DNA of 64,000 nucleotides from positions 25,134,809 to 25,198,808 of the forward strand of contig NC_057719.1 of the NCBI RefSeq assembly GCF_004010195.1. The letters are read 5' to 3'. The notes beneath the pieces are model-generated. The model searched no databases, had not been told where the DNA came from, and saw only the letters and a list, made by a program, of their open reading frames with translations. Shown here one piece after another: positions 4,038-60,654 of the stretch. This DNA comes from Chiloscyllium plagiosum. Lineage: Eukaryota. The position numbers were made by a program, and so were the translations under genes. The number at the start of each line of letters is the position of its first letter. Positions within the stretch are counted from its first letter, which is position 1.

Positions 4038-4101
4038 CCCCTGTTCCAAAAGACAGCCCCACTGGGAAATATTTACTGCTTTTCTGTCTGCACAGATGCT
4101 G

Positions 4102-4332
4102 TTAAAAATCACACATTACCAGGTTATAGTCCAACAGATTTATTTGGAAGTAGTAGATTTTAGAGCACTGCTCCTTCAAGTAGCTGTGGAGCAGGATCCT
4201 GTTCTACAGCTACCTGATGAATGCGCAGCACTCCAAAAGCTAGTACTTCCTAATAGACCTGTTGGACTATGACCTGGTGTTGTGTGATTTTTAGCTTTGT
4301 CCACCTCAGTCCAACACTGGCACCTCCACATC
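4102..4332 (+). mobile_element. Fold-back Penelope terminus (family A) with 11-bp TSD
   Basis: Inverted arms 4103-4196/4197-4293 centred on CAGGATCCTG; tail 4294-4332 on one side only; CACAGATGCTG at 4091-4101 and 4333-4343. Confidence 0.9.
4211..4245 (+). ncRNA. Degenerate hammerhead ribozyme (family A)
   Basis: TAC-CTGATGA-A-helix II (mismatched)-AAAAGCTA-GTA; helix I is TAC/GTA here versus CAC/GTG in other copies (compensatory change). Confidence 0.65.
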
Positions 4333-5321
4333 CACAGATGCTGCCAGATCTGCTAAATCTTTCCATCATTTTCTTTGCTTTAATTTCAGTCCAACATCTG
4401 CTGTAGTTTACTTTCATTTTATAGAATAATGTGGTCCTCTATTTAAAATTTAAAATATCAGGTCTTTATAAGTTACTGTAGAATTTGTTATCTGGGAGGC
4501 ACTGTGATTGTTTGTAAATCAAAATTACCCAGTTAAGCCATTGCAATAGTAAGAATCAAATGAAAACATTTTTTTTTATTGAAGTATTTTGCAACTTGCA
4601 AAGGCCTTGAGCCTTTCAACCTTTGACTGCCGCTGTGAACATTCAGGGAAAAATACTTTGATTATCAACATTGCAGGTGCAGGTGACTGCACTGATGTTG
4701 CTTGTGAAGTGCAAATCCTTAATGTTTAAAAATAAATTGCCCCTAGTTGGGATTTCCTAGCACTGCTGCTCTATATAGTTACTAAAAGGCTTTAAAGCTT
4801 AATTGTAAATCTCTCCGAGCTGTGAAATGGAGAACTCATCCCGTCCTAATGAATATTGGTGATTGTTCCATCTCCTGTTGAGCTGCAGTTTTGGTGCCAG
4901 GTTGTAGTTTGTTTCTGCTGTTGCTTCTATTCCTACTCCAACTGAGCAGAGGTGGAGATGAAACTGTAAAGTGCATTGGCTTCCTCGTAAGATTTGATAA
5001 TAGCTCTGGAGCTAATCCCAGCTTGATGATTATGGGGTATGGATTCGAAAACATTGTAAAGAATGAGCATGGGCACCTGACTGCTCTTCCATTTTATGTA
5101 TTTTTCTTTAAAGGTGACTAATGACAGTCAGTAGTGAATACAATTATTAATTCAGCATGATGAAGCACAGCATATTTTCCTACTTTTTTTGACATCATGG
5201 TTGCGCCTCCACTCTCTCCCGTACACAGTTACCAATGGCTGATCATGACCTCACGCTCCTTTTAAAAGGAGCGAGAATTTTGGAGAAAACAGACCAAGTA
5301 TAGAAGTGGTACTTTCTACAA

Positions 5322-5369
5322 ATAAATCTTTCTGCTCCTCTGATGCTGCCTGACCTGCTGTGCTTTTCC
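5322..5369 (+). mobile_element. 48-bp Penelope terminus fragment (family B) with 20-bp TSD
   Basis: CTGCTCCTCTGATGCTGCCTGACCTGCTGTGCTTTTCC flanked by AGAAGTGGTACTT(T/C)CTACAA at 5302-5321 and 5370-5389. Confidence 0.8.
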
Positions 5370-5394
5370 AGAAGTGGTACTTCCTACAAGTCAA

Positions 5395-5965
5395 ATGCAC
5401 TATGCTGGAGAAACTCAACAGGTCTGACAGCATTTGTGGAGGGAACAGAGTTAATATTTTACATCCAGTACAACTCCTCTTCAGAACTGAAAGGTGCTGG
5501 AAAGTAGGTTCTTTTAAATGCTTTTGGCAGAGGCAGAGCAAGATGGCAGATGGTCTGGAGGCCCAACACAAAAACCAAAGGGTGGAGAAAAAGGTGGGGG
5601 AGAACAAGATGTAAAATAGTTGTCAATTAAAGTGCGAAAGGGAGAGAATTTTGTGCTTGTGAAATAAGAGGGTCTGGTGCAGTGGGAAGAGGATGCAAGA
5701 AAAGTTAGAGGGCAGACATAATGCAGTCGGTTTCTGGTGTTATTGAATTCAGTGTTAAGACATTTGAGGCTGTGAAGTGCCTGAGCAGAAGATGTGTTGT
5801 TTCTTGAAATTGTGTTGTGCCTCATTAGAGCATTGTCGCAAGCCCTGGACAGAAATGTCAGCATGATAGCAAGGTGGTTCAGTTAAAATAACAAGCCACT
5901 GGGAGGTTGGGGTCATTTGTGCCAATAGAATGGAGATGTTCTGCATAATAATCACACCCCGTGTT
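5395..5965 (-). mobile_element. Penelope-like element 3' part (GIY-YIG C-terminus remnant plus family C terminus)
   Basis: PPCYHADISVQGLRQCSNEAQH...GTSQP...LNTEFNN; terminus holds a decayed hammerhead GTT-CTGAAGA...AATATT-AAC (5450-5487). Confidence 0.75.
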
Positions 5966-5984
5966 TGATGCTCATAAAGGAGTA

Positions 5985-6320
5985 AGTTTGAAGCGCAAAA
6001 AGACTTAGAAGTTCTAGTCCAGGATTCTTTCAAGGTAAGCTTGCAGGTTGAGTCAGTAGTTAGGAAGGCAATGCATTGGTGGTATTTATTTTGAGAGGAC
6101 TTGAATATAAAAGCAAGGATGTATTTCTGAGGCTCTATAAGGATCTAGTCAGGCCACATTTAGAGTATTGTGCAGAGTTTTGGGCCCCGTATCTCAGGAT
6201 GGATGTACTGGCCCTGGAGCGTGTTCAGAGAAAGTTCATGAGAATGGTCCCAGGAATGAAAATCTTAACAGATGAGGAACATTTGAGGCCTCTGGGTCTA
6301 TTTTGAAGTTTAGAAAGATG
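5985..6320 (+). mobile_element. CR1 LINE ORF2 C-terminal fragment
   Basis: ORF 6076-6306: RLYKDLVRPHLEYCAEFWAPYLRMDVLALERVQRKFMRMVPG. Confidence 0.9.
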
Positions 6321-6880
6321 TAATGGTGGTATCTGTGTCGACACTCTAACACGTCTTGCAGTGGTTGTCATGACAGGGTTATACGGTGTAATGGTTGATG
6401 TTCACAGCAAACTGTCCAGCTTTCAGGACAACAATGACCTGTGTAAGATTTGATGGTTGTTTAAAGGCGAGAAGTGGAGGCATGGGGAAGGCCTTGGTGA
6501 GTTGCTCATCCTCATTGATAATGTGTTGCAGGCTGTGAAGAATATTTCATGGTTTTTCAGCTCTCGGAAAGTACTGGACAACGAAGGGTACCGTGTCGGT
6601 TGCAACCCGTTTCTGTCTCCTGAGGAGGTCATTACGGTTTGTCGCTGTGGCATGTTGGGATTGGCAATCGATGAGTTGAGCTTTGTACCCTGTTCTTATG
6701 AGGGCATCCTTTACAACCTTCAAGTGTCCGTCACGTTCCTCCTCATCTGAATAGATCCTGTGTATGCATTGGGCTTGGCCATAGGGGATGGCTGTTTTAA
6801 TATATTTAGGGTGGAAGCTGGACAAGTGTAGCATTGTGAGGTTATCAGGTGGGTTTGTGGTAGACTGAGGTGCCCATCTT
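6321..6880 (-). mobile_element. Penelope-like ORF fragment (RT thumb/linker toward GIY-YIG)
   Basis: LHLSSFHPKYIKTAIPYGQAQCIHRIYSDEEERDGHLKVVKDALIRTGY...VPFVVQYFP, then PPLLAFKQPSNL and CHDNHCKTC in shifted frames. Confidence 0.85.
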
Positions 6881-6937
6881 TGACTGAGATATACTTTACA
6901 TGCTTTACCATGTTTGTGTATGCGTGAACACACGTAC

Positions 6938-7042
6938 TCTCTCGCCCTCGCTCTCTCCCCCGCGCTCTCTCCCTCGCGCTCTCTCCCTCGCGCTCTCTCC
7001 CTCGCGCTCTCTCCCTCGCGCTCTCTCCCTCGCTCTCGCTCC
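6938..7042. repeat. CpG-rich 14-mer mini/microsatellite (CGCGCTCTCTCCCT)n
   Basis: About five near-perfect units plus degenerate flanks. Confidence 0.9.
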
Positions 7043-7151
7043 ATGTGCACACGTGTACACACACATGTTTATGGGGTGAATTTGTATTTGCAGATATATT
7101 CTATTTTGCTCAAAAAATGCACAATCTGCAGGCAGTTAAACCATGAAATAT

Positions 7152-7354
7152 TTTGTAAATTCCATTTTGGAAACAGAACCAGTCTGACTCAAGATTGGGA
7201 TACAGACAGACTCTAACCTCATTCCCTTAAGGAGAAAGTGAGGTCTGCAGATGCTGGAGATCAAAGTTGAAACTTTGTAAATTCCATTTTGGAAACAGAA
7301 CCAGTCTGACTCAAGATTGGGATACAGACAGACTCTAACCTCATTCCCTTAAGG
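7152..7354. repeat. 81-bp exact direct duplication flanking a ~42-bp family B Penelope tail
   Basis: 7152-7232 = 7274-7354; the insert reads GGAGAAAGTGAGGTCTGCAGATGCTGGAGATCAAAG. Confidence 0.9.
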
Positions 7355-7659
7355 CATTGTCTGTGCTGAGATGTCACCTTTTACAAAACCTTAAGTTATC
7401 TTGAGAATGTGACTTAAAAGAAGTTCGGGGATTTACATATGAATGAACCAAAACCAGCAAACCCATTCTAAAAGATGAAAGTCTTAACTATCTCGGTTTG
7501 TTCAGTGTATCATTATATCACTGTAATCTTTTGCTATAAGGTGTCTTCAGGTCCTGCTTTACAACCACCTTATGAAGAAGCAGCGCTTGAAAGCTAGTGC
7601 TTCCAATAAAACCCGTGGACTATAACCTGGTGTTGTGTGATTTTTTAACTTGGTCTAAA

Positions 7660-8492
7660 GTAGATAATATGATCACTATGTTTGCAGATGATACAAAAAT
7701 TGGTGTAGTGATAAATAACAAGGAGGAAAGGCATAGACTACAGGAAAAAGTGGAATTTAATCTACAGGAGTGTGAGGTGATTCATTTCTTTGGAGGACTA
7801 TCATTGGAAGGGAGTATACAACAAATGGTATACAACACAGGAAGTACAGATTCAGATTCACCTTGGCATGCATGACCACAGGTCCTTGGAGGCAACAAGG
7901 CTTGGTGGATTAGCCATGGTAAATATGGGGTTGCAGGATACACTGCAATAGGGCTGGGTGAGGTGCTCTTTGAGGGGTCGGTGCAGACTTGATGGGCCGA
8001 ATGGCCACTTCCTGTACTGCAGGGATTCTGTGAAACAGTGTACCTTTTGGACTGTGGGATGATACCGGAGCACCCTGTCGAAACCCATGCAGACATGGAA
8101 AATATGCAAACTTTCCAAGATGGTCACCCAAGGCTGGAATCAAAGCTGGGTTCCTGGCACTGGTAGGCAGAAATGCTAGCCACTGAGCCACCATATAAGA
8201 TGTATGTGACATTGTAGCGTGATAACCTGAATTGCACACAGGAAAGATATATGATTGCATTGGCCGGGGTGCAGAAAAGAATGTGGCCTGGGCTGGAATG
8301 ATTCAGTATGAACAGACTAGATAAACTGGGTTATTTTCCTGCGAGCAGAGAAGGTTGAGGTTGGGGGCAGGGGAGGATACTGATTCAGTACAAAACTGAG
8401 GGGCATACTTAGGGTAAATAGGAAGAATGTTTTTCCCCTTTAGTTGACGGGTCAATAAAAAGAGGGTATAATTTTAAACTAAGTGGCAGGAG
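7660..8492 (+). mobile_element. Decayed CR1 LINE fragments interrupted by SINE pieces
   Basis: [12 protein letters not shown]...FNLQECEVIHF at 7678-7790; ALAGVQKR-like and downstream motifs at 8250-8490. Confidence 0.65.
7900..8193. mobile_element. HE1-like V-SINE, rearranged (tail on +, head/core on -)
   Basis: 7900-8033 matches the SINE tail on +; 8045-8193 matches the V-domain and tRNA-like head on -. Confidence 0.75.
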
Positions 8493-9439
8493 GTCTGGCT
8501 GCTGACTGTATTGCATTAGCCTTCTGGTTTATTAAACACATTCCCTGGTCCCACTTCTTTCCATCAGGCTTTGTGGACAAGGAGATTTGGCAGTGTCTCC
8601 TAATACCCTTGGAAAATGCATGTCTGGCACAAGGAAGGCATTGACTTTCTGTTAACAAATGCAAAGTCCGGCAAGAAAACTCTCTTCAACCAGAAGCATT
8701 TAAATGTCAAAGCACCTCGAGTTAGTGAATGCGATAAATAATTAACATGTTAATGTTTTGAAGTTTTAATTGAAGCCTGCCTTCCTCTAGCATGATGTCA
8801 TCATTTACCAGAATAATACGGGGAGTAGGTTGGGCTTGAATGAAAGACTGCTTCAATTGTGTGTGATAACTATGCACCCACACACACACCAAATGAGGGC
8901 TCAGCAGTGCAGGCTCATTTTATAACCTTTTTGTATATTGTATAAACTATGATTCACGGAATGCTACTTACATAGTTGGAGAAACATTGTCGTAAACATT
9001 TATGGATTACCAGACTTTAAAGTTTAACTTGTTCTTGGGTTTTTAAGAATGCTGTTTATTTAAATATAGATATATTTGTCCTTCCGAGAATTTTTAATTT
9101 AATTTTGTTCTTAACCTAAATTAATAACATTTCTATGTAAAACATGGTAGAATCTTTTCATCCAAGTATGGAAATCTATAGAATTTAATTCTGCAACTGA
9201 ACGGTCTTGTCCTTTTTAGTAGTTGGAACCTGTTTTCTCTTTGGCCTTCTTTTTTTGACTTGAGTTTGAGATAATATTCCAGATCAACCTTTTTCTATTT
9301 TAGAGTCATGTCTGAAATACTTGTCTACACCATTAAGACTGATCTGCTCTTGATTCTGAAGTCCCCTTGTCTTGGCACTTATTAAAACCTGAATTTTTGT
9401 AGCTTACCCTCCTAACTCTGATAGCAGTTGTCAGTGGAT

Positions 9440-9520
9440 TTTGAAGAAGAGTACCTAGACTCAAAGTTAACTGTTTCTCTCCACAGATACTGCCAGACCT
9501 GAGTTTCTCCAGCAATTTGA
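9440..9520 (+). mobile_element. Penelope family C terminus remnant
   Basis: TTGAAGAAGAGT...GACTCAAAGTTAACTGTTTCTCTCCACAGATACTGCCAGACCTG, similar to 50295-50399 and 51655-51795. Confidence 0.6.
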
Positions 9521-10169: not shown

Positions 10170-10546
10170 ACTTGGGGCTGTTTTCATTAGAGAAAAGAAG
10201 GTTTAGGGGTGACTTGATTGAGGTGTACAAGATGATTAGGGGGTTAGATAGGGTTGACAGTGTGAACCTTTTCCCGCGTATGGAGTCGGGTATTACAAGG
10301 GGGCATAGCTTTAAATTAAGGGGGGGTAGATATAGGACTGAAGTTAGGGGTAGGTTCTTCACTCAGCGAGTCGTAAGTTCATGGAATGCCCTGCCAGCAG
10401 CAGTGGTGGACTCTCCCTCTTTATGGGCATTTAAGCGGGCATTGGATAGGTATATGGAGGATAGTGGGTTAGTATAGGTTAGGTGGGCTTGGATCGGTGC
10501 AACATCGAGGGCCAAAGGGCCTGTACTGCGCTGTATTCTTCTATGT
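10170..10546 (+). mobile_element. CR1 LINE 3' end with open ORF2 C-terminus
   Basis: GLFSLEKRRFRGDLIEVYKMIRG...TRGHSFKL...FFTQRVVSSWNALP...FKRALDRYM; retains CpGs, so relatively young. Confidence 0.92.
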
Positions 10547-11340: not shown

Positions 11341-13668
11341 TCTTGACTCCATCCAGCACCAAGTAATGCATTTGATTTTCGCTCTGTCCAGTAAGTCTAA
11401 ATTCTCCGGCAATCCTCTAAGTTTTTTGTTTTGACAGCACTCCTCAATGCTTAACTTTTCAACACCTAGAAGGATGTAAGCTGCACATACATTTGAACAC
11501 TCCTTTCCTCCAAGCCCCAGTCAATTCAGATTTGAAATTATGTTACTGTATATCTTCATAGGACTAATTCTGTAACTAACCACCTAACAGCATCTGTGAA
11601 ACATCTTCACTACAGAGCAAAGTTTTATCATCATCATCATCCTGAGACATGTAAGTTCTGACCTTGCATTTCAAGAATGAATGACTCATTTTCAAAAATT
11701 GCTTTGGCAGTTCATGAGGAACAATTACTAAAGTATGCTTATAGCCCTGCAGTTTCAAGCTCTTCCTGTTTGATTGGTTTAATCTAATTGTTTTATTGAA
11801 ACAGCCTCAAAACAGTTTGTGTGTGTGTGTATGTATGTATGTGTGTATATATACAGCTTAATTCAGATATCTATCACAGCTAACATACAAAGAACATTTT
11901 CGCATAAATATAAAACTTCTAATGAGTGCATAAGTCTTTTTAGAATTTTAGCTATTTGCCTGTTCCTATTGTCTGCAGAGACTTTGTGAAGCAAAGGTTA
12001 AAAAACAAAACATTTTATTTCTGTCCAAGATTTTCACTTTCCTGTTGCTGTTCAGAACTCTGTTTTGTTTTTATAGCTTTTTGTAGTTCAGAGAGAGGGC
12101 AAATTGATACATTTCAGTCAAAATCATCTGGTATAATTTCAGTGACATGCCCCTCATCTTTGTTCACTTCACAGTCATTGTCTGAGCATTCTGCGTTCTG
12201 TGGCAAATCATCCTTTTGCTGTGTGGCAATCATGGGTGAAGGAAAATCATAATTGCTGCTTTTATATCATCACCTTAAGAGATTGGTCACCACCATAGTA
12301 TTGAAGAATCACAGATTCCTTATCCTTAATGCACAGAATTTAGTATGTGGTAGATCAAATTCTCTCGTAGCGAGGTTTTTTTTTTATGGCAAACCACATC
12401 CTCTTGTACAAATGTAATGCTTGGCTGATTAAAGAATTGTGTTAAACTAATATGGGATCTAGAATGATGACTTCTTCTTAGAAATTGAACAATGTTTATT
12501 TAATTGGGATGGTAAGTAATGGAATGAGGTCTCTTTTATCAGTTAAATACTGTAGTTTGGTATCTTTTTTAAATCCAATAGTTTTGTGTTGGTTATATTA
12601 CAGAAGTCATGGTTAATAGCATCCAACCATACCTGTGAGTTTGGAAACTTGTATTAAACTTTTTTAAAAAAAATTAGAATTTTAAAAAATAAATCTGTTA
12701 TCTTCAAGATTGCCTTTTTTTTGAGATCTGATCTGCTATTGACCTTTCTAATATGGTTTTAGTCCCACAGTGATGTTGTTTTAGAAATGATCTAGCCATC
12801 ACTCACTGGCTTGGTGTTAAACAATTGTCAGTTTCTCCACCTTGAGGGACATGGGAACATTGACTAGAAGTTGTGCACTGTCTTGATTTGGACATGTGTT
12901 GACCCCATTTTTTTTTTGGATCAAGATCCTGGAACTCCGTACCTAACTGCATTGTGGAGGGGCTTCCATTAAATGTATTGCAGCGATTCAAGAAGAAAAC
13001 TTGTGTATACCACCTCAAGGGCATTTAGGGGATGGACAATACACGTGGGCCTTGTGTGTAGGACCCATGCCCCAAGAGTGTATTAAAATGCAATAATAGA
13101 TATTTTATGTCATTAGGCAGCGTGAAAGTGTTTTCAATATATGTAATCATTTTACCAAACCATTTAAAAATAAATACAAAGAAAGGGCACCTTGGTTTTA
13201 ATAAAGAAAGTTGCTGAGATTGACTTTTCAAAAAGATGTGTTTTTGTAACCTTGATAGAAGAGAATTTATGTCTCTGTCATTTTTATAACCAAGTCCAGT
13301 CATGTATGTGATCTCTGTAGCAACCTTGCGCATGATTGCACTGTACATAATATTACATATATCATCTAGACATTTATATTCCTCTAAACCTGGCTACACA
13401 TGTGGGTTATAGTCAAAGTATAAACTTTGTGTTCAAAACTAATTTGGACTGTATTATGATACAGTCCCTGAAATTGAAGAATGGATTTACTATTGCACGA
13501 CCAATTACTTCTGTTTGAAGAAGGGGAGTAGCTTTCCATCAGCTCAAATTTGCTTCTTTTTTGTATGACTGTCTTTTGAACTTAATGTGGCTTCCATTGA
13601 GTATGTGATCTCTGAAATGGGCCTACTATATGTGTGTCAAACTTCTGGCTTGGGAGAAGTAGAAATCA

Positions 13669-13861
13669 TCAAGGAGAAAGTGAGGACTGCAGATGCTGGA
13701 GATCAGAGCTGAAAATGTGTTGCTGGAAAAGCGCAGCAGGTCAGGCAGCATCCAAGGAGCAGGAGAATCGACGTTTAGGGAAGGGCTCATGCCCTAAACG
13801 TCGATTCTCCTGCTCCTTGGATGCTGCTTAACCTGCTGCGCTTTTCCAGCAGCACATTTTC
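13669..13861 (-). mobile_element. Fold-back Penelope terminus (family B) with 14-bp TSD
   Basis: 72-bp arms 13709-13780/13792-13863 (3 mismatches), 11-nt loop; tail on the left only; AGAAGTAGAAATCA at 13655-13668 and 13862-13875. Confidence 0.92.
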
Positions 13862-14751
13862 AGAAGTAGAAATCAGCCAGTTTTCCCATTCCGCATTGCC
13901 CTGCAGAAATCCCTGCTGAATATACCTGAATGTGCGTTGAGGATACGTTTAGGTTTGGTTGTGATTTTCCTGTCCTATTGATACTCTGCTGCCAAGCATG
14001 TAATTGCCACTTGGTTGAGAAGCAGGAGGCTGGATCATGGAATGGTGTTGGGGCAAGAAACCAGTTTGAGTGGTTGAGAAACCAATACCTTGTTTTTAGA
14101 TCATTGGGCAAAGGTCTGCCCAGATTTAGCCAAAAAAAACCTCCTGTCATTTGGAGAGATGGTGAGGATGCAAAATGAAAAATCTGAATTATGGGGCATC
14201 TGGGGATGTAATACTGAGTCTAAAACTAGCTAAAAACATTTACATTTCAGTGCAAGCTAACTTATGGAGTGAGTGGGCGATAGTTTCTCTCCACTGTGCC
14301 CACAGCTGTTATTGACTGAAACCATTATGACACTTTTAATCAGTGTAAGGCTATAATTATATGTTTATTTCATGTGGAAAGGGTGTAGAGCTGTTTTCAT
14401 CATTGTGGTTTTTGGTCTTGTTTACTTTTAATGCAAATTTTTCTGGTATGTAGATGGCTCTGTCCCGCTTTTCTGATGTACACTTTGAGTTAGTGTTAAT
14501 CCTTTTTGGATTATCATATTGTACAAAGGAAAGGATTTCAAGTCTCTCAGAGAAGATATTTGCACGTAATAAGTTACAAAAGTAATAAGGCTTGTTTGAA
14601 TACTGAATATGTAGGAAAGAGCTGTGATCATGAGTGGGTCCAAAATCTGAAGTTGACCTTCTGACGAAAGGTCCTTATTTGTAACTTTAGACTAGTTGCT
14701 GCTTGACCTGCTGAATATTTCTAGCATTTTCCGTTTTTACTTTGTTTCCAG

Positions 14752-15300
14752 TGTTATGGACTAGACAAACCCACCAAACCTTAGCCTAGACCCTAATTTT
14801 TTTTCTCATTTTAAAGATAAATACCAGGCTTTGCATTCCAGAAACAGTTCAATTGGTCAAAGTATTAGTCTTGAAGCAAAATATATTTTATTCGTATATT
14901 GTAGTTAAAAATGGCAAAAAGAAGAAATTGGAATAGCTTAACTCTATTAGAAACCTTAATAGAATAATAGATTATTTAACTGTAACTGTTCCAATATAGT
15001 AGCATCCCATAAACTCGGTCTTTGCAAAGGCAAATTCAGTTAAACAGATCACCTCAAATGCAATACTAGCAGCAGAAAGAGAACCCCAGCTTTTAGCTGT
15101 AACAGAGAGAGGAAAAACAACTTCCAAACCCAGCAGCAACTGAAGGCTAAAACTTAAAAAAAAAAAGTCCTGGTTTTCTGGGAGCTTAAGCACCCCCACC
15201 CCCATCATTCAGGCAGCTCCTATTGTTCCAACTTTTTAAAAAAAAAACCCAAGGTCTCAAGCTGTTTACTGTATTGGCTTTGAGGCCGACCACTCACCTC
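14752..15300. mobile_element. Possible LTR remnant
   Basis: Starts TGTTATGGAC like an LTR terminus and has repeat-like composition; no partner LTR or TSD found. Confidence 0.3.
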
Positions 15301-15304
15301 AAAC

Positions 15305-15580
15305 TCAACACTGAAGTGCTGCTGTCATTTCAGATGTGAGATTGATGCCCTGTCTGCCCTCTCAGGAAGATATCAAAATTTCTTTTCCACTGACTGAGGA
15401 ATAAATATTGGCTACAGATATCACACCTGCTCTTTCAATGTAATAAAAAGCATGATCTGATGACAATCAAATAGATTGTAAATTAGCAGACATGTTATCT
15501 GTATTGCAGCAGTGACTTCACGTTAAAAGTATTCTAATAGCTATAAAGCCCTTAAGATTTCTGGTGGTCATGAAATAGTT
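15305..15580 (+). mobile_element. Deu-domain SINE remnant
   Basis: CCCTGTCTGCCCTCTCAGG core and AGTGACTTCAC...AAAGTATTC tail, similar to 33915-34140 and 61981-62372. Confidence 0.5.
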
Positions 15581-24477: not shown

Positions 24478-24565
24478 GAGCTGAAAAATGTGTTGCTGGA
24501 AAAGCGCAGCAGGTCATGCAGCATCCAAGGAGCAGGAGAATCGACGTTTTGGGCATAAGCCCTTC
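24478..24565 (-). mobile_element. Penelope family B terminus with 15-bp TSD
   Basis: AGGGTTTGAAGGTCT at 24463-24477 and 24566-24580; element truncated inside the hammerhead core (minus strand TGAAGGGCTTATGCCCAAAACGTC). Confidence 0.88.
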
Positions 24566-24974
24566 AGGGTTTGAAGGTCTTCATTGCCTCCTTTAAGGAA
24601 CCTGGCAACAAGAGGGCACAACCCCATTAACCACCACCCACCTGCCCATGAACCAACTAGCCCCACAACCTGCTTGCCACCATCTTTCATTCACTAGTGC
24701 ATGGACATCTCTTCAATTCGAGGCCTTTGATAGCTCTGCTACTGCTAGCAGCCACCACCCTCAGCTGGGATTGCTGAACACAGGAACTGCCAGTCTTTGA
24801 TCTGCTCCCATTGGACAAGACCTCCACCTCTGGTGCCAAGGAAGACCCACTGAGTGGCAGCAGAGGCATTGGACATCCCCTAATAGAGGCAATATTGGAG
24901 TCTCGTTCAGTCTCCTGCAGGCAGTTGAGAAACCGTCCTCTACAGGCTCCTGCCTGGCCTGTTGGGCCAGTGGC

Positions 24975-25095
24975 AAAAAGTGAATACTGCAGATGCTGGA
25001 GATTAGAGTCAAGTGTGGTGCTGGAAAAGCACAGCAGGTCAGGCAGCATCCAAGGAGCAGGAAAATTGACGTTTCAGGCAAAAGCCCTACATCAG
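24975..25095 (-). mobile_element. Penelope family B terminus with near-intact hammerhead core
   Basis: Minus strand 25068-25095: CTGATGT-A-GGGC-tttt-GCCT-GAA-ACGT-C, followed by the family B body and tail. Confidence 0.8.
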
Positions 25096-25320
25096 CCTTT
25101 GGAAACTGTTCGTGATGTGCAGTGTATGGAATGAGGGCCAGGTGGATCACATCGATTCTGATATCCCTGATTTGGATCAGGTTAGTAACCCCAATTGGGG
25201 ATCTCCTATGCTGAGACCCACCTGACACACGTTCAATTTGCTGCAGATATAATGGACTTTGAAGTAAGTACAGAGCAATAGGCAATAAAGATCAAAAGGA
25301 AAGTTCTGAGTGAGTGGAGA

Positions 25321-25667
25321 ATAGAATCCTTACAGTGCAGAAGTAGGTCATTTGGCATGACGCTCTGAAGAGCATCCCACCCAGGCCCAGCCTGCTACCC
25401 TATCTCTGTAAACCCATCTCTGTAACCCCATGTTTACCATGTCTAATTCACCTACCCTGCACATCCCTGGACACTAGACAATTTAGCATGGCCAATCCAC
25501 CTAATCTGCACACCTTTGTACTGTGGGAGGAAACTGAAGCACCCAGAGGAAACCCATGCAGACATGGGGAGAATGTGCAAACTCCATAGTCGCCCAAAGC
25601 CGGAACCAAATCTGGGTCCCTGGCACTATGAGGCAGCAGTGCTAACCACTGAGTCATGATGCCACCC
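25321..25667 (-). mobile_element. HE1-like V-SINE
   Basis: Reverse complement of the head, V-domain and tail seen at 15652-15975. Confidence 0.88.
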
Positions 25668-34627: not shown

Positions 34628-34832
34628 AATCATAGGTTCATGCTGCATGGAAACAGACTTTTCAGTCCAACTCGTCTATGCCAACGAAGTTTCCCAAAAT
34701 AAACTAGCTCCACTTGCCTGCGCCTGGCCCATATCCCTATAAACCTTTCCTATTTATGTATCCATCCAATGTCTTTAAAATGTTGCAACTGTACCTGCCT
34801 CTACCACTTCCTCTGGCAGTTCATTCTACAGA
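34628..34832 (-). mobile_element. CR1 LINE 3' tail
   Basis: Reverse complement of the NELP/FK.../tail region. Confidence 0.85.
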
Positions 34833-34844
34833 TGAACTGAGGGC

Positions 34845-35081
34845 CTGAGGGCCAACTTTTTCACACAGAGGGTGGTGTTTGGAGTGAGCTGCCAGTGGAG
34901 GTGATGGAGGCTGGTACAATTAGAACATTTAAAACGCATCTGGATGGGTACATGAATAGGAAGGGGTTGATGGATATGGATCAAATGCTCACAAATAGGA
35001 CTAGATTAATTTAGGATAGCTAGTTGACATGAATGAGTTGGCCCAAAGGGTCTATTTCCATGGTGTACAACTCTATGACTC
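34845..35081 (+). mobile_element. CR1 LINE 3' tail
   Basis: NFFTQRVV...FKTHLDGYMNRKG; ends CTCTATGACTC. Confidence 0.85.
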
Positions 35082-41900: not shown

Positions 41901-43918
41901 CTTTTATTAAAACAGTAACTGCACTCCAAATGTATTTCGGTGGCTGTAAAGCACAGAGAGATGTAATTATGCAACACAACCACCAGGCTAGTTTTTTTTT
42001 AAAAAAGAGATGCTGCACTGTTATCCACACCATGCAGAAATGAGCATTTTGATGTCATATTGAGCTGACATTTGTACAAAAAAAAATCAGCTAAATATCT
42101 GGGCTTTTGACTCCTTCCCTGTCAGATGGACTATGTTGTGGCTCTGTTTTGTTTACGTAGCACCAAGTTTCTTGCTTCGGTCAATATTAATGTGCTTGGG
42201 TATGAATAGGAAATTGTTTTCTACGTTATTTCATGCTGTAGAATAACCTATCTGTTGGGGAAAATATAGTCACCTTGATGGACAGCATGTCAGATCACCA
42301 ATACTTGCAGAAGTGAATGCTTCTGGTGACAATATGAAATATGAAAGCCAAATACTGAGGAGATTGGGATCAGAAATGAACAGTTACCATTTTAAGTTCA
42401 GTATGGATCTGAAACATTAATCATTTCCCTTTCCGGAGTGATTACCCACTGTGCATGTTTGGCTGCTGTGCATGCTCAAACACAGGCCACGAACATGGCC
42501 TGGCCATCGACAGCACACGCTGCAGGATGCATCAGTGCATGCATCGATGATTATCACTGCATTCCGTGTGCTGTGGTGTCAGTATCGGTGCATGCATCAC
42601 TGCTGGGGGTGGCTAGGCAGGGGTTTAGGCCCTGTTGGGTGCAGGGCAGCATTAAGGTTGGCGGAGTGTTGCTGCACCAGGGGACTGGGTTTGGGGAGGG
42701 CGAAACCAGGAGGCAGCCATCTTTTTCCCTGCAGAAGGCTGAGGGAAAATTTAGGGAGTGTGGTGGTGGGGGTGAGCAGGAGCAGGGATGGGTGAGAGGG
42801 GGAGGCTGCTCAGAGAAAATAAAACAAAAACTTATTTTTTTGTTTGATACAAGGGATATTATTTTACATCCAGTCACTTAATTCCCAATTGTTTGAGAAT
42901 TATGTCAACCTTCTTTTTGCTGTTTGAGTTACCAGGAGGTGATAGGTGCATTATACCGTCTTCTGTCTCCACAGATGCTTCCTGATCTGTTGAGTATATC
43001 TGGTATTGCTTTTATTTCAGATTTGCAAAAATGCTGCTTTTGTTTTAGAATGTTTTAACCTGGCAGATTGTGCTTTTTAAGGAAAGAAAGAGTTTGGGTT
43101 TTATAAATACCTGCTTCCTAACAGATACATTTCTGTGTATCTGAAGGCTGGTTTGAAGTCACTGTGCTTAACTCTATGGACTTTGTTAAATGGCATCAAT
43201 ATACACGAACATGGTTGGTGAGTTTTGTCAACTCATCTGTCTCATTAACTGGATAACACCAGATTGACAGAAAATTCTTGGAATCAGCTGCTTTATTTGG
43301 AGGAATTGAATGCAAAGGAAATCACTTGTTCTATTCATGATTTATTCTCTCATCTTCCTTTCTTCATTGCATCACTTTGACTGCTTCCCCCCCCCCCTTC
43401 TATTCCTTTTAAAACAGGAAGGCAAAACCTCATTGATAATTCAATATAAATACCCAGGAGTATGTTTTTAACTCACTGTGTTTAGGTTACATTGCAACAT
43501 CTCAGTTCTGTGAACAATGAATATTTTGAAGGAAGCGAGTGTTAGAAAGGAATTGTAACAGCTAGTCAACTACTGCAGCCTTCACGTAGAGCCAGCAGAT
43601 AAAATATCAATGAATGGCTTTGGAGGTGTTCAATTGAGGAAGGAAATCTTGGGCAGGACATCAGGAACGCCCCGTTTTCAAAACAAAAATACTAAAAGAC
43701 AAAAGCAAGAACTTGCATTTATATAGCACCTTTTGCAGTATCACTGCTTGCAGGCCAACAGAGAAACATTTAAGGATAGTCACTGATCTATTGAAGGAAA
43801 ATGATGTTTCCTACATGAATTTGATAAATGATCAGGTGATCTGTTGGTGACTTGGTTGAACTCATTTAGATAGATTTATGGGATATTTCAAGTGAACTTT
43901 AAGAACGCATGCTCTAAA

Positions 43919-44058
43919 AGTTCTGGTTGGAATGCCATGCTTCTAGGAATTCTCATGCGGGTTTTTGTTTGGCTTGTCCTAGGAATGATGTGGTGTCCTT
44001 CCTCATCCATGTGTAAGGATACTAGTGAGAGAGGGTCATGTCTTTTTGTGGCTAGGTG
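43919..44058 (-). repeat. Inverted copy of the Penelope segment at ~44500-44657
   Basis: AGTTCTGGTTGGAATGCCATGC...GTCTTTTTGTGGCTA is the reverse complement of the downstream GIY-YIG-coding segment, with a ~20-bp deletion. Confidence 0.88.
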
Positions 44059-44059
44059 A

Positions 44060-44905
44060 ACTACAGAAGCATCTACAAAGTAAGCTGCATCAGAATATTA
44101 TTTCAAAGAGCCAACACACACTGCAGCACAGAGGAACTATGCAGAGCAGAGGAAAATCACCTGTACAGTGTATTTTTAAAAAACGGGTAGCCAATGAACA
44201 CAGTCCACCGATTTCTCATCAACAAATCCAAACAAGCAGACAAAACACATTCAGAAACCCTAACCACTCTCCCCTACATCAAAGACATCTCGGAAATAAC
44301 TGCCAGATTACTCAGACCCCGTGGCATCATGGTAGTCCACAAACCCACCAACACACTAAACCAGCAGCTAATGAACTTGAAAGACCCTATACAGACCACA
44401 AGCAAAACTAATGTCATTTACAAAATACCATGCAAGGACTATAACAAATACTACATTGGACAAACTGGCAGAAAACTAGCCACCAAGATACATGAACACC
44501 AATTAGCCACAAAAAGACATGACCCTCTCTCGCTAGTATCCTTACATATGGATGAGGAAGGACACCACTTCGACTAGAACAACACATCTATCCTAAGACA
44601 AGCCAAACAAAGACATGCACGAGAATTCCTAAAAGCATGGCATTCCAACCAGAACTCTATCAACAAACACATTGACTTGGATCCCATTTAGCACCCCTGA
44701 GAAAAAGAACAGGAAATGACATCACCACAGGAAATGACATCAGCAACCCAAAGAAACCCAAACATATAAATAGAAAGCAGGAATTATCAGCAGTGCTTCG
44801 CCTGAGGCCCACTGAACATGTTACCTAGTGTGGTGACAAAATGTCTGGAAATGAACCTTCCAGCTCAGAGAGAGGACCTCAACCTGAGCTTCAAATCTTC
44901 TCATG
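44060..44905 (+). mobile_element. Penelope-like element 3' part encoding a GIY-YIG endonuclease (family D)
   Basis: ORF 44194-44577: LPYIKDISE...NVIYKIPCKDYNKYYIGQTGRKLATKIHEH...GHHFD* (premature stop; AREFL.AW follows). Confidence 0.92.
44809..44848 (+). ncRNA. Degenerate hammerhead ribozyme (family D)
   Basis: CCA-CTGAAcA-T-GTTACC-tagtgt-GGTGAC-aAA-ATGT-C-TGG; helix I CCA/TGG, 6-bp helix II. Confidence 0.7.
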
Positions 44906-49934: not shown

Positions 49935-50520
49935 AGGGGAGATGGTGGTGTAGTGATAACGTCACTGGGCTAGTAAAGCAGGCTAATTCAAATCCAGCCA
50001 TGGCATTGGTGAAATATAAATTGATTTAGGAATAGAGATGGCTAATAATTACCCATATCCTATGAGCAAGTAAAATTAATCTGGAACGTAGTTTAGTATT
50101 GGTGACTATGTAACTGTCATTGCCTGTTGTAAAACTATATCTGGATCACTCATGTCCTTTCATAAGAGAGAATATTTACCTTCATTTGACAAAAAGCAAA
50201 AGAATTGTGGATGCAGTAAATCAGAGACCAAAATAGAAATTGCTGGAAAAGCTCAGCAGGCCTGGCAGCATCTGTGGAGAGAAATCAGAGTCAATATTTT
50301 GGAAAGGTCACCAGACCTGAAATGTCAACTCTGATTTCTCTACACAAATGCTGTGTCAGACCTGTTGAGCTTTTCCAGTAATTTCTACTTTTGCTTTCAT
50401 GTGATTTCAGACCTGGACCAACATGGTTGATTCTTAATTGCACTGTGACGTGACCTCACAAGCCATTCAGTTGTATCAGCAGTGGTGGTTCAAGAAGTTC
50501 ACAACAGCATCTTGAGGTGA
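49935..50520 (+). mobile_element. Old tRNA-derived SINE interrupted by a Penelope fold-back
   Basis: GGTGGTGTAGTG A-box-like and TTCAAATCC B-box-like motifs; GGTTCAAGAAG tail shared with the L2-like fragments. Confidence 0.5.
50188..50399 (-). mobile_element. Fold-back Penelope terminus (family C)
   Basis: Arms ~50225-50300/50308-50399; centre holds AGGTC-acca-GACCT-GAA-ATGT-C (hammerhead helix II/III); tail on the left only; no clear TSD. Confidence 0.8.
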
Positions 50521-56194: not shown

Positions 56195-56780
56195 ACAGAG
56201 TATAGGAGTTGGGAGGTCATGTTGCAGCTGTACAGGATGGTGGTTAGGCCACTTTTGTGCGCAGTTCTGGTCGGTTTCCTATCAGGAGATGTGTGAAACT
56301 TGAAAGGGTTCAGAAAAGATTTACAAGGATGTTGCCAGGGTTGGAGGATTTGAACGATAGGGAGAGACTGAATAGGCTGCGGCTGTTTTCCCTGGAGCGT
56401 CAGAGGCTGAGGGGTGACCTTATAGAGGTTTACAAAATTATGAGAGGCGTGGATAGGGTAAATAGGCAAGGTCTTTTTCCTGGAGTGGTGGAGTTCAAAA
56501 TTAGAGGGCATAGGTTAGATGGGAAAGATTTTAAAAAGGACCTAAAGGGCAACTTTTTCACACAGATAGTGGTGCATGCATGGAATGAGCTGCCAGAGGA
56601 TGTGGTGGAGGCTGGTACAATTACAACATTTAAAAGGCATCTGGATGGGTATATGAATAGGAAGGGTTTGGTGGGATGTGGGCCAAATGCTATCAAATGG
56701 GACTAGATTTATTTCTGATATCTGTTTAGCGTGGACAAATTGGACCGAAGGGGCTGTTTCTGTGCTGTACATCTCTGACT
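56195..56780 (+). mobile_element. CR1 LINE 3' fragment
   Basis: KLERVQKRFTRMLPG...LRGDLIEVYKIMRG...WNELP...FKRHLDGYM. Confidence 0.92.
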
Positions 56781-57320
56781 CAAAGAAATAGATATTTAGC
56801 ATGACTAGTTCGCACCAGTGTTTATGACTCAGTGTTTATGACTCACTCCAGCCTCTGCCCACTTCTCTTCATCTAAATCTGTAAACATTGTTTCTTCCTG
56901 TGGGGCTAACCAAAATGAGACGATCACTATAGTGATGGTAACTAAAAAAATTCTGAAAAGGAATTCAGGAGAATGTCCTTTACCCAAAAGAGTGGTGAGG
57001 ATGTGCTCTGTGCTAGCATAGGGAGTGGTTAATGTAGCTGTATTTATGGTAAACTGGATCAGGCATGGAGACAGGGAATAGAGGGATATATTGCTACATT
57101 TTAGATGAGGAAAGACAGATGGAGGCTCACGGGGAACATATCTTGAATGGTTACTCCTGAGTACAAGGTAATCCCTGACATTTTTGCCAAACTCTTTGTA
57201 TTTACCAGTACTTGACTGCAAACTCATCTTAGCACAAGCCTACATGACTGCATCATAGACTAACACACCATTTGAACTTAACACAACACCAGGTTCCAGT
57301 CCAACAGGTTTATTTGGTAG

Positions 57321-57355
57321 TACAAGCTTTTGGAGCACTGCTCCTTCATCAGGTA
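57321..57355 (-). ncRNA. Degenerate hammerhead ribozyme (family A, left arm)
   Basis: TAC-CTGATGA-A-GGAGC-agt-GCTCC-aAA-AGCT-T-GTA; only G12 deviates from the core consensus. Confidence 0.75.
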
Positions 57356-57647
57356 GCTCGTGGAGAAGGACCATAAGACGCAGAACTTATAGCAAAACAT
57401 CATAGTGTCATACAACTGACACGATATATTGAACAAACCTTTTTTTGAATATAAAACCTTAAATTATCTTGGAATGCAAATTGAAAGAAATTCTGGGATT
57501 TACATATTAATGAACCAAAACCTGCAAACCATTCTAAAAGATGAAAGACTTAACATCAATCTAGGTTTGTTCAATATATCGCATCAGTTGTATGATATTA
57601 TGATGTTTTGCTATAAATTCTGTGTCTTAAGGTCCTACTCCACGAGC

Positions 57648-57682
57648 TACCTGATGAAGGAGCAGTGCTTCAAAAGCTTGTA
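57648..57682 (+). ncRNA. Degenerate hammerhead ribozyme (family A, right arm)
   Basis: TAC-CTGATGA-A-GGAGC-agt-GCTTC-aAA-AGCT-T-GTA. Confidence 0.75.
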
Positions 57683-59594
57683 CTACCAAATAAACCTGTT
57701 GAACTGGAACCTGGTGTTGGTGTGATTTTTTTTTAAACTTTGTCCACCCCAGTCCAACACTGGCTCCTCCTCATCACACCATTTGACGAATACAGTTTGG
57801 CAACTTCCCCACCGAGTCCTTTTTTTGAACAACTTTTTGATGCAAGGCAAATCTGTGATAGGAAGGTGATGGGAGAGGGTCGATTTTGATCTCTGGACAT
57901 CAGAGTGGAGTCACCTGGGTGTCCGTACCAGTTTTTCTCCAGAAGCAGCCCCTTAAATGGGCATCTCCGGTGAGATTTCTTTTCTTCATTGCTCTATTTT
58001 ACACCAAGGATTGTATCTAGGTACTCCATACATAAGATGATGCTGTGTGTTGGTGACATTATTATACCGAGGTAACATTAGAACTAAGATGGTGCTATAA
58101 GTGAAGAGTTGTATAACTTTTCACTGTACTCGTTTGAGTACATGTGACAATAAGCTAATTCAATTCAATTCAGTTGCATAACTGGGTGGGTGGCCAGGCA
58201 CATGGGAGCCACTTTTAGTCCTGGTCTCAAAAACATGTCAAAGGTGGTATGATTCTGGTTACTGACTCTCTACCTGTTGATCAAAATGTTTCACAACTTT
58301 ACAGACTTCTCTCCAGTCTTTCGTTTTCGACAGAAAAGAGCCCCAACATATGATACTTGTGAGTTCAGAGTTCTGGTATCATTCCAGTGAAACCTTTTTG
58401 GACCTTCTCCAGTGCTTCCAAAGCCTTTTAATAACATGAAGACCAGATACTCTTGCTTTGATGATCCATTTCATGATTCTGAATGAAGTTCACAAGGAGC
58501 TCTTAGAGCTTCACTTTGTCCCACACCAGGGAGCAGACCAAGGATTTTCTGGGAAGTGCAGACTTTCCTGTGGATTAAATGGTGAGACTGCAAGTCTTTT
58601 GCAATCCATTCCCTTTTTCTGAGGGAAGTTTGGATCGATTTGAGGGAAGCGTGCGGGGAACTGCAGAGGACATCTCACTACTGCCTTCTCTAGGGCAATT
58701 AAGGATGGGTGATATGACCTAGCTAGCTAAGCCACATTCTGTGAACAAACTGAGAAAAAAAAATCTTCATCCAAATGCAGATATTCAGCCGATTTGCACT
58801 GAATAATGCCTTTCATCAGGCAGTTTGCCAAAGTCTCACTTTGAGATTTAAGTTGTTTCAACAAAAGAAATCAAAACCTTCATAGTAATGCACAAATAGA
58901 ATTATGACATTGAAAACTGATATGTCAGCTGTTTCTAATAATGGATACATGGGCTACTGGCTGGGTTTTCTGTGATTCTATGGTGAGCCTCAAAACTGCT
59001 TCCCCCAGAAGTGACTGGGAGCAGTTCTGGATTGGCCATTTTGCCTATTTCTTGCATCACTGTAAAACTGATCTGGAATTTGATTAATAATGTACTCTGT
59101 CACATGGACGATTAAAAAGAAACATACAGTGGTTTGGACAGTTAAATTCCTCTTATTTTTTTAAAAAACTTATTTTTAAAGACAAACACATTTATGTAGG
59201 ATATTGTCCATATGATGTCTTTGTGACAAGTGACCAATAAAAAGAGCAGCAGGTTCCACCAATGAAATTGACAAGCGGCCCACTCTGTCTCTGAGTGTCA
59301 TTAAGCTTTGCTTGTCATTGTAACAACCAGACAAACTATTGGCCTATGTAGAGAAAGCAACAGAGAACCAGTGTCATTCCCATAAGGGTGCTAATTGTGA
59401 AACCTCTAGCTGCTCAAAGATATTCTATATAGTACAATAATATAAAAAAAGGTTTGGTTAAACATTACCATTTAATCAAAAACGTTTAAAACCAGTACTG
59501 ACATGGTATAAACTAGCAAATTACTGTCATGGCATGTTTTGCTTAGAAGCTGACATTGACAGGTTTCCAGATAAATCTGTGGCTACCCAGTCCA

Positions 59595-59767
59595 AGTCAT
59601 ACAGGACAGAAATAGACCCTTTGGTCCAACTCGTCCAGGTTGAGCTGATATCCTCAACTGACCCACCTCCGTTTGCCAGCATTTGGCCCATATCCCTCCT
59701 AAACCCTTTCTATTTATATACTCATCCAGATGCCTTTTACATGTCTTAATTGTACCAACCTCCACCA
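59595..59767 (-). mobile_element. CR1 LINE 3' tail
   Basis: VEVGTIKTCKRHLDEYINRKG and tail. Confidence 0.8.
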
Positions 59768-60020
59768 AGAAATCTTGTCACAGAAAAAGGAAGTGCATAC
59801 AGGAATAAAAAGCCATTTACCTTCCCAACAAGGCAAGAAGAAAGAAATATTGAACAATAAATTATTGTCTTTCATTCCTGAGTTATGGTACCCAAAACTG
59901 AAAGCAGAACTCTAGATGGTACCTGACCAACTGTGACTTTTGCTTCCTGCTTTTGATATTTCACTGTATTCGAAATAAACATTGCCATTCCCCTATTTGA
60001 TTCACACCTGCAACTCTGCA

Positions 60021-60227
60021 AGGAGAAAATGAGGACTGCAGATGCTGGAAATCAGACTCGAAGATTGTGGCACTGGAAAAGCAGAGCAGGTCAAGCAGCA
60101 TTCGAGGAGCAGAGAAATTGACATTTCGAGCATAAATTCTTCATCAGGCTTATGCCAGAAATGTCAACTCTCCTGCTTCTCAGATGCTGCCTGACTGGCT
60201 GTGCTTTTCCAACTGCACAGTCTTCGT
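60021..60227 (-). mobile_element. Fold-back Penelope terminus (family B) with 16-bp TSD
   Basis: Arms ~60059-60135/60150-60226; tail on the left only; CACCTGCAACTCTGCA at 60005-60020 and 60228-60243. Confidence 0.9.
60116..60150 (-). ncRNA. Hammerhead motif with intact core nucleotides but weakened helices (family B)
   Basis: CTGATGA-A-GAAT-ttat-GCTC-GAA-ATGT-C. Confidence 0.7.
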
Positions 60228-60654
60228 CACCTGCAACTCTGCACCCACTTTGAAATGATTTGCGGACACAGCCACTCAAATCCTGTTTCTTCCCCATGAT
60301 GATGAGACTCTCCATTCAGAAATTATTCCACTTTGTCTTTCCCAGACCGAAAGCAGTTGACTTCACGCCATTCGCCTCATACAATTCTTACCTTCAAGGC
60401 AGAAATATCCATCAAAAAGCAAGAGAGTATCACAGCACTTTTTCATCTGGGATTTTAAATAAAACTGTAAGGAATTTAAATAAAACTCTAAGGAATTATT
60501 GAGAACCATTGCACCAGGGAATCAATGTGAAACCAGCTGAACCCATGGGATAAGCGTGTTCCCACTGATAGACAGAACTCATGTCCTGGGCTTGTGCAGT
60601 AAATATCATTGGGGCAGATTCACTCAAAAAGAGCATACGGGAAATAGAGTTTTT

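Follow-up and report, generated by a model that had tools for sequence, protein, structure and literature searches.

Five short insertions in a 64,000-nt stretch of the Chiloscyllium plagiosum genome (the window; NC_057719.1, positions 25,134,809 to 25,198,808) are built of two inverted arms each, which raises the question whether such hairpins copy themselves or arise anew each time another element inserts. A first, sequence-only reading had described five hairpins of 190-500 bp and offered two origins, either stereotyped abortive products of target-primed reverse transcription by Penelope-like elements (PLEs) or non-autonomous hairpin retroelements mobilised in trans. All five are present in the window, with lengths of 193-499 bp. 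E1 (4102-4332, 231 bp) and E4 (57276-57774, 499 bp) belong to family A, E2 (13669-13861, 193 bp) and E5 (60021-60227, 207 bp) to family B and E3 (50190-50393, 204 bp) to family C. Three distinct families had been proposed; A stands apart, but B and C are related and their profiles cross-match.

Anatomy of the hairpins

The arms lie head to head in all five hairpins, and each hairpin has one tail. Measured on arm alignments, the tails of E1 to E5 are 39, 40, 38, 37 and 38 nt long, and the 35-40 nt extension of a single arm that had been described is thus found in 5/5 cases at 37-40 nt. The tail-less arm ends at most a few bases from the repeat/tail boundary, again as described, with a ragged end in E4. 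The exact TSDs reported for four hairpins are also there (11 bp in E1, 14 bp in E2, 12 bp in E4, 16 bp in E5), and E3 carries a decayed one with a 9/11 match. In a control on the same window, an exact anchored repeat of at least 11 occurred in 1 of 20,000 random end pairs. Coding sequence had been reported as absent, and a tblastn search with four PLE proteins (E<=1) gave no match within any of the five hairpins.

E1 consists of an inverted tail-less arm (4102-4196, minus strand) and a sense arm with a mutated hammerhead (4197-4332, plus strand) that ends in the 39-nt tail (4294-4332). The spacer between its arms is zero, and a GGATCC palindrome lies at the centre. The left copy of its TSD (4091-4101; right copy 4333-4343) belongs to an older family-C PLE end (4060-4420, plus strand) that was hit and split by E1. 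When aligned to other family-C copies, the halves of this split end overlap by exactly the 11-bp TSD, which gives a virtual empty site: E1 entered in a single event. E4, the other family-A hairpin, lies between TSDs at 57264-57275 and 57775-57786. It has an inverted tail-less arm (57276-57440, minus strand) and a sense arm with a mutated hammerhead and a tail of ~37 nt (57441-57774, plus strand), the 5' end of which is a 122-nt unpaired spacer; the arms mismatch at 13/165 columns.

In E2 the left TSD (13655-13668) is followed by the 40-nt tail (13669-13708) and the rest of the tail-bearing arm (13669-13780, minus strand), which starts in the 3' strand of hammerhead stem II. The tail-less arm (13780-13863, plus strand) starts ~12 nt more 5' than the tail-bearing arm, mismatches it at 3/71 columns and overlaps the right TSD (13862-13875) by 2 nt. 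E3 is arranged alike: behind a probable decayed left TSD (50179-50189, 9/11 match to 50394-50404) come the tail of ~38 nt and its arm (50190-50302, minus strand), which also starts in the 3' strand of stem II, and then a tail-less arm (50302-50393, plus strand) with a start further 5'. The junction of E3 is homologous to that of E2. E5, flanked by TSDs at 60005-60020 and 60228-60243, has a tail-bearing arm with a 38-nt tail (60021-60148, minus strand) and a tail-less arm (60147-60227, plus strand), with a 2-nt overlap at the junction.

The families are dense and nest in one another, so that two arms might have arrived separately, or a palindrome might have formed by rearrangement after insertion. 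The arms of E1 and E5 would suit such a history, as they mismatch at 17/97 and 21/80 columns despite exact TSDs (84% and 77% alike, no closer mutually than to other copies). However, a single TSD brackets both arms in 4/5 hairpins with no inner TSD, E1 fits its virtual empty site exactly, and the head-to-head, one-tail arrangement holds for all five. In addition, the arms of E2 and of E4 are 96% alike, those of E4 being 79-88% identical to other family-A copies. We therefore consider a separate origin of the arms very improbable.

Ribozyme remnants and relatives in the window

The hairpins are ends of hammerhead-bearing PLEs. A minimal type I hammerhead is recognisable by alignment in the terminal repeats of families A-C, whereas the Rfam search returned no hammerhead, only four sub-threshold chance matches. 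The cores are mutated in E1 and E4, the first core box is missing in both arms of E2 and E3, and the tail-bearing arm of E5 is the sole arm with a full core, its stem II being decayed; by pattern, none of 8 solo copies checked has a full core. Of the earlier idea that each hairpin, if transcribed, forms a long dsRNA stem masking its own ribozyme, the first half is supported by prediction and the second is largely moot. The predicted fold is strong (z -8.4 to -47.6; 10-30 shuffled sequences for each strand), and the stem would be expected if the hairpins were transcribed, but with an intact core in 1/10 arms there is little ribozyme to mask. The shark motifs resemble the minimal metazoan PLE hammerheads of PMC4209133 in the core boxes, the extra base before stem II and the palindromic helix III; they differ in that their cores are mostly decayed, and sharks are absent from the genomes named in the available part of that paper. 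The same part describes dual hammerhead motifs on opposite strands, 100-700 bp apart, in Schistosoma.

According to profile matches, families A-C contribute ~24 insertions to the window, five of them hairpins and ~19 not. One family-B copy is a tail-less, non-inverted stub (24478-24565, minus strand) with an exact 15-bp TSD and 94-97% identity to the arms of E2. Another (7230-7273, minus strand) is a tail-only insert with one copy of an 81-bp direct repeat on either side (7152-7232, 7274-7354; the copies are identical). Two relatives are coding. In the first (6319-7655), an antisense piece with RT thumb and Cys linker (6319-6883, minus strand) abuts sequence that reaches a family-A end (to 7655, plus strand), and the inverted parts do not overlap. 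This ORF piece is 64-68% identical to shark RT proteins, and its link to family A is adjacency at one junction. The fragment at 6319-6852 carries CX4CxxC, within the CX2-5CxxC linker before GIY-YIG by which the available text of PMC8557442 defines the Neptune/Nematis type, an assignment made by motif; Penelope and Poseidon do not have such a linker. Its homolog P0009 has CX4CxxC plus a DKG motif. The second coding relative (family D, 43912-44904) combines an inverted endonuclease piece (43912-44056) with a sense thumb/GIY-YIG ORF end, a decayed hammerhead and a tail, the last three being contiguous. Both coding remnants are inverted at ORF-internal points. Families B and C have no linked ORF within the window. 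The two coding remnants and most old solo copies showed no TSD.

These relatives bear on the label 'MITE-like' given by the sequence-only reading. The resemblance to MITEs is one of shape, as the hairpins are short and non-coding with inverted ends; it does not extend to class, because the TSDs, at 11-16 bp (11, 12, 14 and 16 bp where exact), do not have one fixed short length. Likewise, uniform copies bounded by TIRs are not what is seen: a one-sided extension lies outside the inverted repeat, and most siblings lack an inverted arm, some being 5'-truncated. With hammerhead remnants and PLE coding neighbours in addition, an origin from a DNA transposon has a negligible probability.

Non-LTR retrozymes (PMC7229834; bioRxiv 10.64898/2026.07.22.740005) share with the hairpins the small, non-coding format, a type I hammerhead, the kinship to PLE pLTRs and long TSDs. 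Their units are however arranged in tandem, head to tail, their ribozymes are intact and their RNA is circular, whereas the shark inserts are head to head with broken ribozymes, and head-to-tail units with complete hammerheads do not occur among them.

The closest likeness is to the complex insertions of EN+ PLEs. In the available text of PMC8557442 these comprise a 5'-truncated copy in inverted orientation and a tail of 30-40 bp that is often confined to one end; that of PMC3846280 describes an inverted pLTR, a 31-bp tail and 8-10 bp TSDs in rotifers, and that of PMC2377424 inverted repeats which differ in size between copies, transformed flies included. The inverted partial pLTR and short 3' extension cited by the sequence-only reading as PLE background agree with the first two of these papers. 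As far as the three texts go, the shark hairpins match them in the head-to-head end copy, the one-arm tail, the variable TSD and arm lengths and the hammerhead in the repeat. An adjacent, inverted, 5'-truncated copy, a TSD of variable length (four exact, one decayed) and a tail of 30-40 nt at one end (5/5) are all present. They differ in being cut down to the two ends alone (~200-500 bp, no ORF), and their TSDs of 11-16 bp exceed the rotifer lengths given in PMC3846280.

Junctions and the origin of the second arm

On the evidence of n = 5 hairpins, it is likely that each is a single, heavily 5'-truncated insertion by an endonuclease-bearing PLE, built at the landing site. The GIY-YIG enzyme of the PLE would nick both strands 11-16 nt apart, which would yield the TSD, and reverse transcription would start internally on the RNA, at either of two sites ~37-40 nt apart, which would yield the tail. 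Both nicks would prime, the outer site most likely giving the tailed arm and the inner site the tail-less arm; to this two-nick step, taken on its own, we give an even chance. Both cDNAs would reach 70-330 nt before synthesis ended, in many cases at the hammerhead, and the two would be joined head to head via 1-6 nt of microhomology. The product lacks an ORF and, as a rule, a working ribozyme; it was probably dead from the start, and we infer that it is incapable of further mobility.

Two known systems come close to this scheme. For PAc, a Poseidon element of the lizard Anolis, the available text of PMC11167929 reports that in vitro both strands are cut and extended, that two RT start sites correspond to the tail ends and that ribozyme cleavage is dispensable. 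These start sites did not differ between strands in vitro, so the strict pairing of one tail per hairpin lacks an explanation in the published data; the available text on PAc contains no analysis of inverted products, and the available part of PMC8557442 calls the way in which PLEs form inverted repeats and tails still undefined. In twin or dual priming of L1 (PMC2837659) both nicks also prime and two inverted pieces lie inside one TSD. L1 twin priming however gives inversions with deletion, while the hairpins are inverted duplications; these call either for another RNA (dual priming) or for copying one stretch of RNA twice.

A per-insertion product could also have obtained its second arm from one strand alone, either through self-priming or because host repair folded back a cDNA end; endonuclease resolution would then have added or trimmed the tail. 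Taken jointly, we regard these routes as possible though rather unlikely. Self-priming was proposed in PMC3846280, as far as its available text goes, from palindromes at inverted junctions, and E1 has a palindrome at its centre. In E4 and E5 the tail arm is longer and the microhomology is 2-3 nt, as one-cDNA fold-back predicts, and private variants are common to both arms in E2 and in E4. Small-hairpin inverted duplications are also known from breaks made by L1, where it is genomic DNA that is duplicated (10.1101/2024.12.14.628481). In E2 and E3, however, the tail-less arm extends more 5', neither arm contains the other and neither can have been copied from its partner. With the extra 5' bases on one arm and the tail on the other, the arrangement cannot result from fold-back of one target-primed cDNA, which argues against simple fold-back and for two-nick priming at the two start sites of the PLE. 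The inversion at 6319-7655, whose parts do not overlap, points the same way, although fold-back on an antisense template would be compatible with both observations.

If a few master hairpins were transcribed and copied whole in trans by PLE proteins, the second origin offered by the sequence-only reading, hairpins of one family should share their junction. Within the window they do not: the junctions differ between E1 and E4 and between E2 and E5, and from E1 to E5 the spacers are 0, ~7-12, ~13-17, 122 and ~10-14 nt. (An automatic measure of 36 nt for E3 was inflated by decay and was rejected in favour of the alignment figure.) This in-window check is not uniform, since E2 and E3, from families B and C, have homologous stem-II junctions, as a shared master would give; this we count against the per-insertion reading. 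Masters would also fit the very high abundance of family B (76,874 and 79,328 contigs matched in two DNA runs, summed contig depth not being taken as copy number), the existence of non-autonomous PLE derivatives and the ability of pLTRs alone to mobilise sequence in trans reported in the available text of PMC3846280. Most copies are however non-inverted, and the young subfamily of E2 also made the plain, TSD-flanked stub at 24478-24565.

Genome-wide reads at a solo family-B copy (24700-25350) add to this picture. Among the 15 joints listed of 68, 10 switch strand; these 10 lie at positions that all differ, and none is backed by more than 6 contigs. None of the 15 equals the E2 junction and none dominates. 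The joint table is an undercount, with far fewer inversions than the one-in-five share in the window predicts, and with 15 of 68 joints listed it is too weak to rule out a common junction. Some family-B contigs elsewhere contain go-back joints of ~85 nt. No sharp RNA start or end was found at this copy among 3,089 reads from a single-cell poly(A) run (~2% sampled). Taken together, and with the inversion of both coding remnants included, the evidence favours per-insertion products over amplified masters, whose existence seems improbable, and the earlier alternative of hairpin retroelements finds little support. The abortive-product alternative is supported by the anatomy, the varied junctions and the stubs.

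Several other observations were made at the same solo copy. An empty site was not found there; related organism B carries the insert too. Piles of loose ends at 25011-25015 were rejected as tail-less ends, the loose letters being family sequence at a place where the reference has its own indels. A>G places (31 in RNA, 19 and 23 in DNA) were not accepted as editing because the reads derive from thousands of paralogues. Beyond this copy, an exact-pattern scan of metagenome, viral and prokaryote genome contigs gave no further copies, and a run search for 12000-15500 listed no RNA data set, which says nothing about expression.

It is a long shot, and no better than that, that a subset of hairpins forms a replicating class of mini-retroelements, with hammerhead stem II fixing their centre. 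The E2/E3 junction would then be ancestral to the split of B and C or be remade in each cycle, with the PLE protein using the outer start site for one arm and the inner for the other, and the dead ribozyme fold would serve as a joining signal and not as a cutter.

Implications for PLE insertion

The hairpins look like the known insertion anatomy of PLEs at its shortest, not like a new self-copying element, and in annotation they should not be filed as MITEs or microRNA hairpins. With tens of thousands of such ends in the genome, these stubs are useful as a fossil record of PLE insertion. If exactly one tail per hairpin and a free choice of the longer arm hold, this would point to coupled use of the two RT start sites, one from each nick, a step that the existing in vitro PLE system could test.

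Hairpin insertions and their ends

A sliding scan of the window (64,000 bases, 41% G+C) listed 19 local inverted repeats, the long ones being five hairpin insertions, one repeat at 43919-44656 and an old pair of LINE ends at 34646-35062. The hairpins E1 (4102-4332), E2 (13669-13861), E3 (50190-50393), E4 (57276-57774) and E5 (60021-60227) measure 231, 193, 204, 499 and 207 bp, respectively. Exact target-site duplications (TSDs) flank four of the five (E1 11, E2 14, E4 12 and E5 16 bp), and the flanks of E3 match in 9 of 11 positions. Among 20,000 random end pairs from the window an exact anchored repeat of at least 11 bases occurred once. In each arm alignment one arm carries an extension of 37-40 nt, the tail, and the partner arm stops a few bases from the same boundary. 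No tblastn match with four proteins of Penelope-like elements (PLEs) was obtained inside E1-E5. Thus, the observations of the sequence-only reading on size, TSDs, one-sided tail and lack of coding sequence all stand.

The arms differ in 17 of 97 (E1), 3 of 71 (E2), 13 of 78 (E3), 13 of 165 (E4) and 21 of 80 (E5) aligned columns, and predicted folding lies far below that of shuffled sequences (z from -8.4 to -47.6; E2 -18.8 with 200 shuffles). In E5 (60005-60243) and E1 (4091-4343) the differences are mostly not of CpG type, and the TSDs are exact; this could mean two different templates, faster decay of hairpins or selection by the reader. The LINE pair (CR1/L2-like 3' ends, head to head at 34631-35081, 68-70% alike) has no clear TSD; as it is also inverted, inverted pairs in the window are not unique to PLEs.

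The hairpins are real, correctly assigned to PLEs and represent a known kind of insertion. Published PLE anatomy includes an inverted 5'-truncated copy and a 30-40 bp tail, often on a single end (PMC8557442). A rotifer PLE shows the same inverted copy and tail with TSDs (PMC3846280), Penelope has inverted repeats whose size varies by copy (PMC2377424), dual hammerhead motifs on opposite strands, 100-700 bp apart, were noted in Schistosoma (PMC4209133), and a curation guide names inverted pLTRs as well as extensions among the PLE peculiarities (PMC8969392). Retrozymes, unlike E1-E5, are tandem and not inverted (PMC7229834; bioRxiv 10.64898/2026.07.22.740005). Neither a shark-specific description of the pattern nor twin priming applied to PLEs was found in the literature searched, a set with few subscription papers and without the PLE reviews of 2005 and 2006.

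Families, hammerheads and coding remnants

In common orientation, the arms contain a first core box followed by a single extra base, then stem II, a second box and a palindromic helix III; by sequence this corresponds to the minimal type I hammerhead known from the terminal repeats of PLEs (PMC4209133). The tail lies downstream of the hammerhead, therefore the 3' ends face outward and the arms join head to head. Profiles for families A (E1, E4), B (E2, E5) and C (E3), built from window copies and so matching these by construction, recover about 24 insertions, five of them hairpins; three block-shuffled sets gave one match in total. Of the three families proposed as distinct, A is separate, whereas B and C are related, as their profiles cross-hit.

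The first core box is missing from E2 and E3, and the G of the second box is lost from E1 and E4. Since the full core survives in one of ten arms, little ribozyme remains to mask: the proposed dsRNA stems are predicted and would form if the loci were transcribed, but masking of their own ribozyme is largely void.

An antisense piece at 6319-6852 is 64-68% identical to shark RT proteins (E down to 2e-70; 32 of 100 candidates passed), and all homologs with a named host are from sharks. A homolog carries a DKG motif, RT domain, CX4CxxC linker and GIY-YIG-like end, which are Neptune/Nematis features (PMC8557442). At 43912-44904 an inverted endonuclease piece is followed by the end of a thumb/GIY-YIG ORF, with a Pfam match under the curated cut-off, and then by a decayed hammerhead and a tail. 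Both remnants are of the same class as the hairpins; no ORF linked to families B and C was seen in the window. The 43912-44904 copy is a sixth, coding, inverted PLE insertion, whose inverted arm does not begin at the tail boundary but some 250 nt away from the 3' end, within the GIY-YIG region. At 6319-7655 the antisense RT-thumb/linker piece adjoins, with no overlap, the sense-oriented 3' region of a family-A copy; inside the antisense piece a patch of 37 nt (about 6396-6432) runs the opposite way, and no TSD was found.

Non-inverted siblings form a spectrum of stubs, a tail-only insert and long family-A ends. One tail-less stub with a 15-bp TSD is 94-97% like the arms of E2, and another has a near-exact 20-bp TSD. 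The tail-only family-B insert (41-44 nt) lies between two identical 81-bp direct repeats (7152-7354) within an older family-A end; the event is young and its duplication unusually long. The TSD-flanked family-B stub 5319-5372 starts near the predicted site of hammerhead cleavage; most copies start upstream. On the sense strand, family-B copies (24975-25060 and others) show, by eye, a stretch of pyrimidines that closes with CAG some 18 nt past a branch-point-like word; lying directly ahead of the tail, it resembles a 3' splice site. An intron is known close to this part of PLEs.

Junctions and the unit of insertion

E1 lies within an older family-C end. When the two flanks were aligned one at a time to other C copies, the left one ended and the right one began with identical 11 bases (scores against one reference were equalled by 47 and 4 of 2,000 random slices, respectively); therefore the TSD arose by real duplication, and the two arms entered together. 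The arms of E4 share private variants and are 96% alike, versus 79-88% to other family-A copies. The older E1 (84%) and E5 (77%) give no arm-specific kinship signal. The stretch 3556-4420 may hold an older hairpin: two old family-C ends that resemble each other stand head to head, separated by the 3'-end fragment of a LINE (about 3665-4035), and E1 lies in the right-hand end. A TSD around this pair was not found.

If hairpins were amplified masters copied whole, junctions should recur, and mapping them had been suggested as a check. Within families none does: E1 has no spacer and E4 one of 122 nt, and neither arm of E2 starts where the corresponding arm of E5 does. However, the junctions of E2 and E3, members of the related families B and C, are homologous: in both, the arm with the tail begins within the 3' strand of stem II, and the arm lacking it begins immediately ahead of stem II. 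Because solo B and C copies tend to stop in the same zone, a shared stopping hot spot would, judged from sequence, be enough to explain this. Four public runs were matched to a solo family-B copy at 80% likeness, and 76,874 and 79,328 contigs fitted in the two DNA runs. Of 68 joints, the 15 listed include ten with a change of strand; these lie at ten different positions, each with no more than six contigs per run. No listed joint is the junction of E2, joints being undercounted. Absence of a heavily amplified master at the top of this table lends weak support to per-insertion origin, and masters are very improbable.

In one poly(A) single-cell run, whose library does not reach small RNAs, 3,089 of 12,955,460 reads fit the solo copy. 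As they run in both orientations, 98% continue into other sequence and no sharp start or end is seen, they fit passengers in host transcripts. A few contigs on 24977-25095 show go-back joints of 84-85 nt between tail boundary and hammerhead, a hint that the tail-less unit occurs in head-to-tail tandems; a few others join tail end to tail boundary on opposite strands.

Proposed priming of the two arms

According to PMC11167929, a PLE protein from a lizard cuts the two strands and extends each of them, its RT starts at two internal sites whose spacing equals the tail, and ribozyme cleavage is not needed. Inverted L1 inserts are modelled as priming from both nicks with one or two RNAs (PMC2837659). 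By such a scheme both nicks would prime, one at the outer and the other at the inner start site, and two short cDNAs would be joined via 1-6 nt microhomology; the non-overlapping 6319-7655 inversion would be a classical twin-priming outcome. All five hairpins have exactly one tail, a result expected at most once in 32 if the start sites were picked independently, in a set chosen for this pattern. For two-nick priming as the step we consider the case evenly balanced.

A single target-primed cDNA that folds back can only give a tail arm that outreaches its partner on the 5' side, as in E4 and E5; the arms are even in E1, but in E2 and E3 the tail-less arm is longer. Self-priming on an antisense template (PMC3846280) is a real rival to two-nick priming. 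By analogy with Drosophila Penelope, where transcription starts a few hundred bases upstream of the 34-bp repeat (PMC2377424), run-off at the RNA 5' end could explain the short stubs.

Between abortive PLE products and hairpin elements mobilised in trans, the two origins first offered, the former is favoured: all routes together, the hairpins are very probably per-insertion dead stubs.
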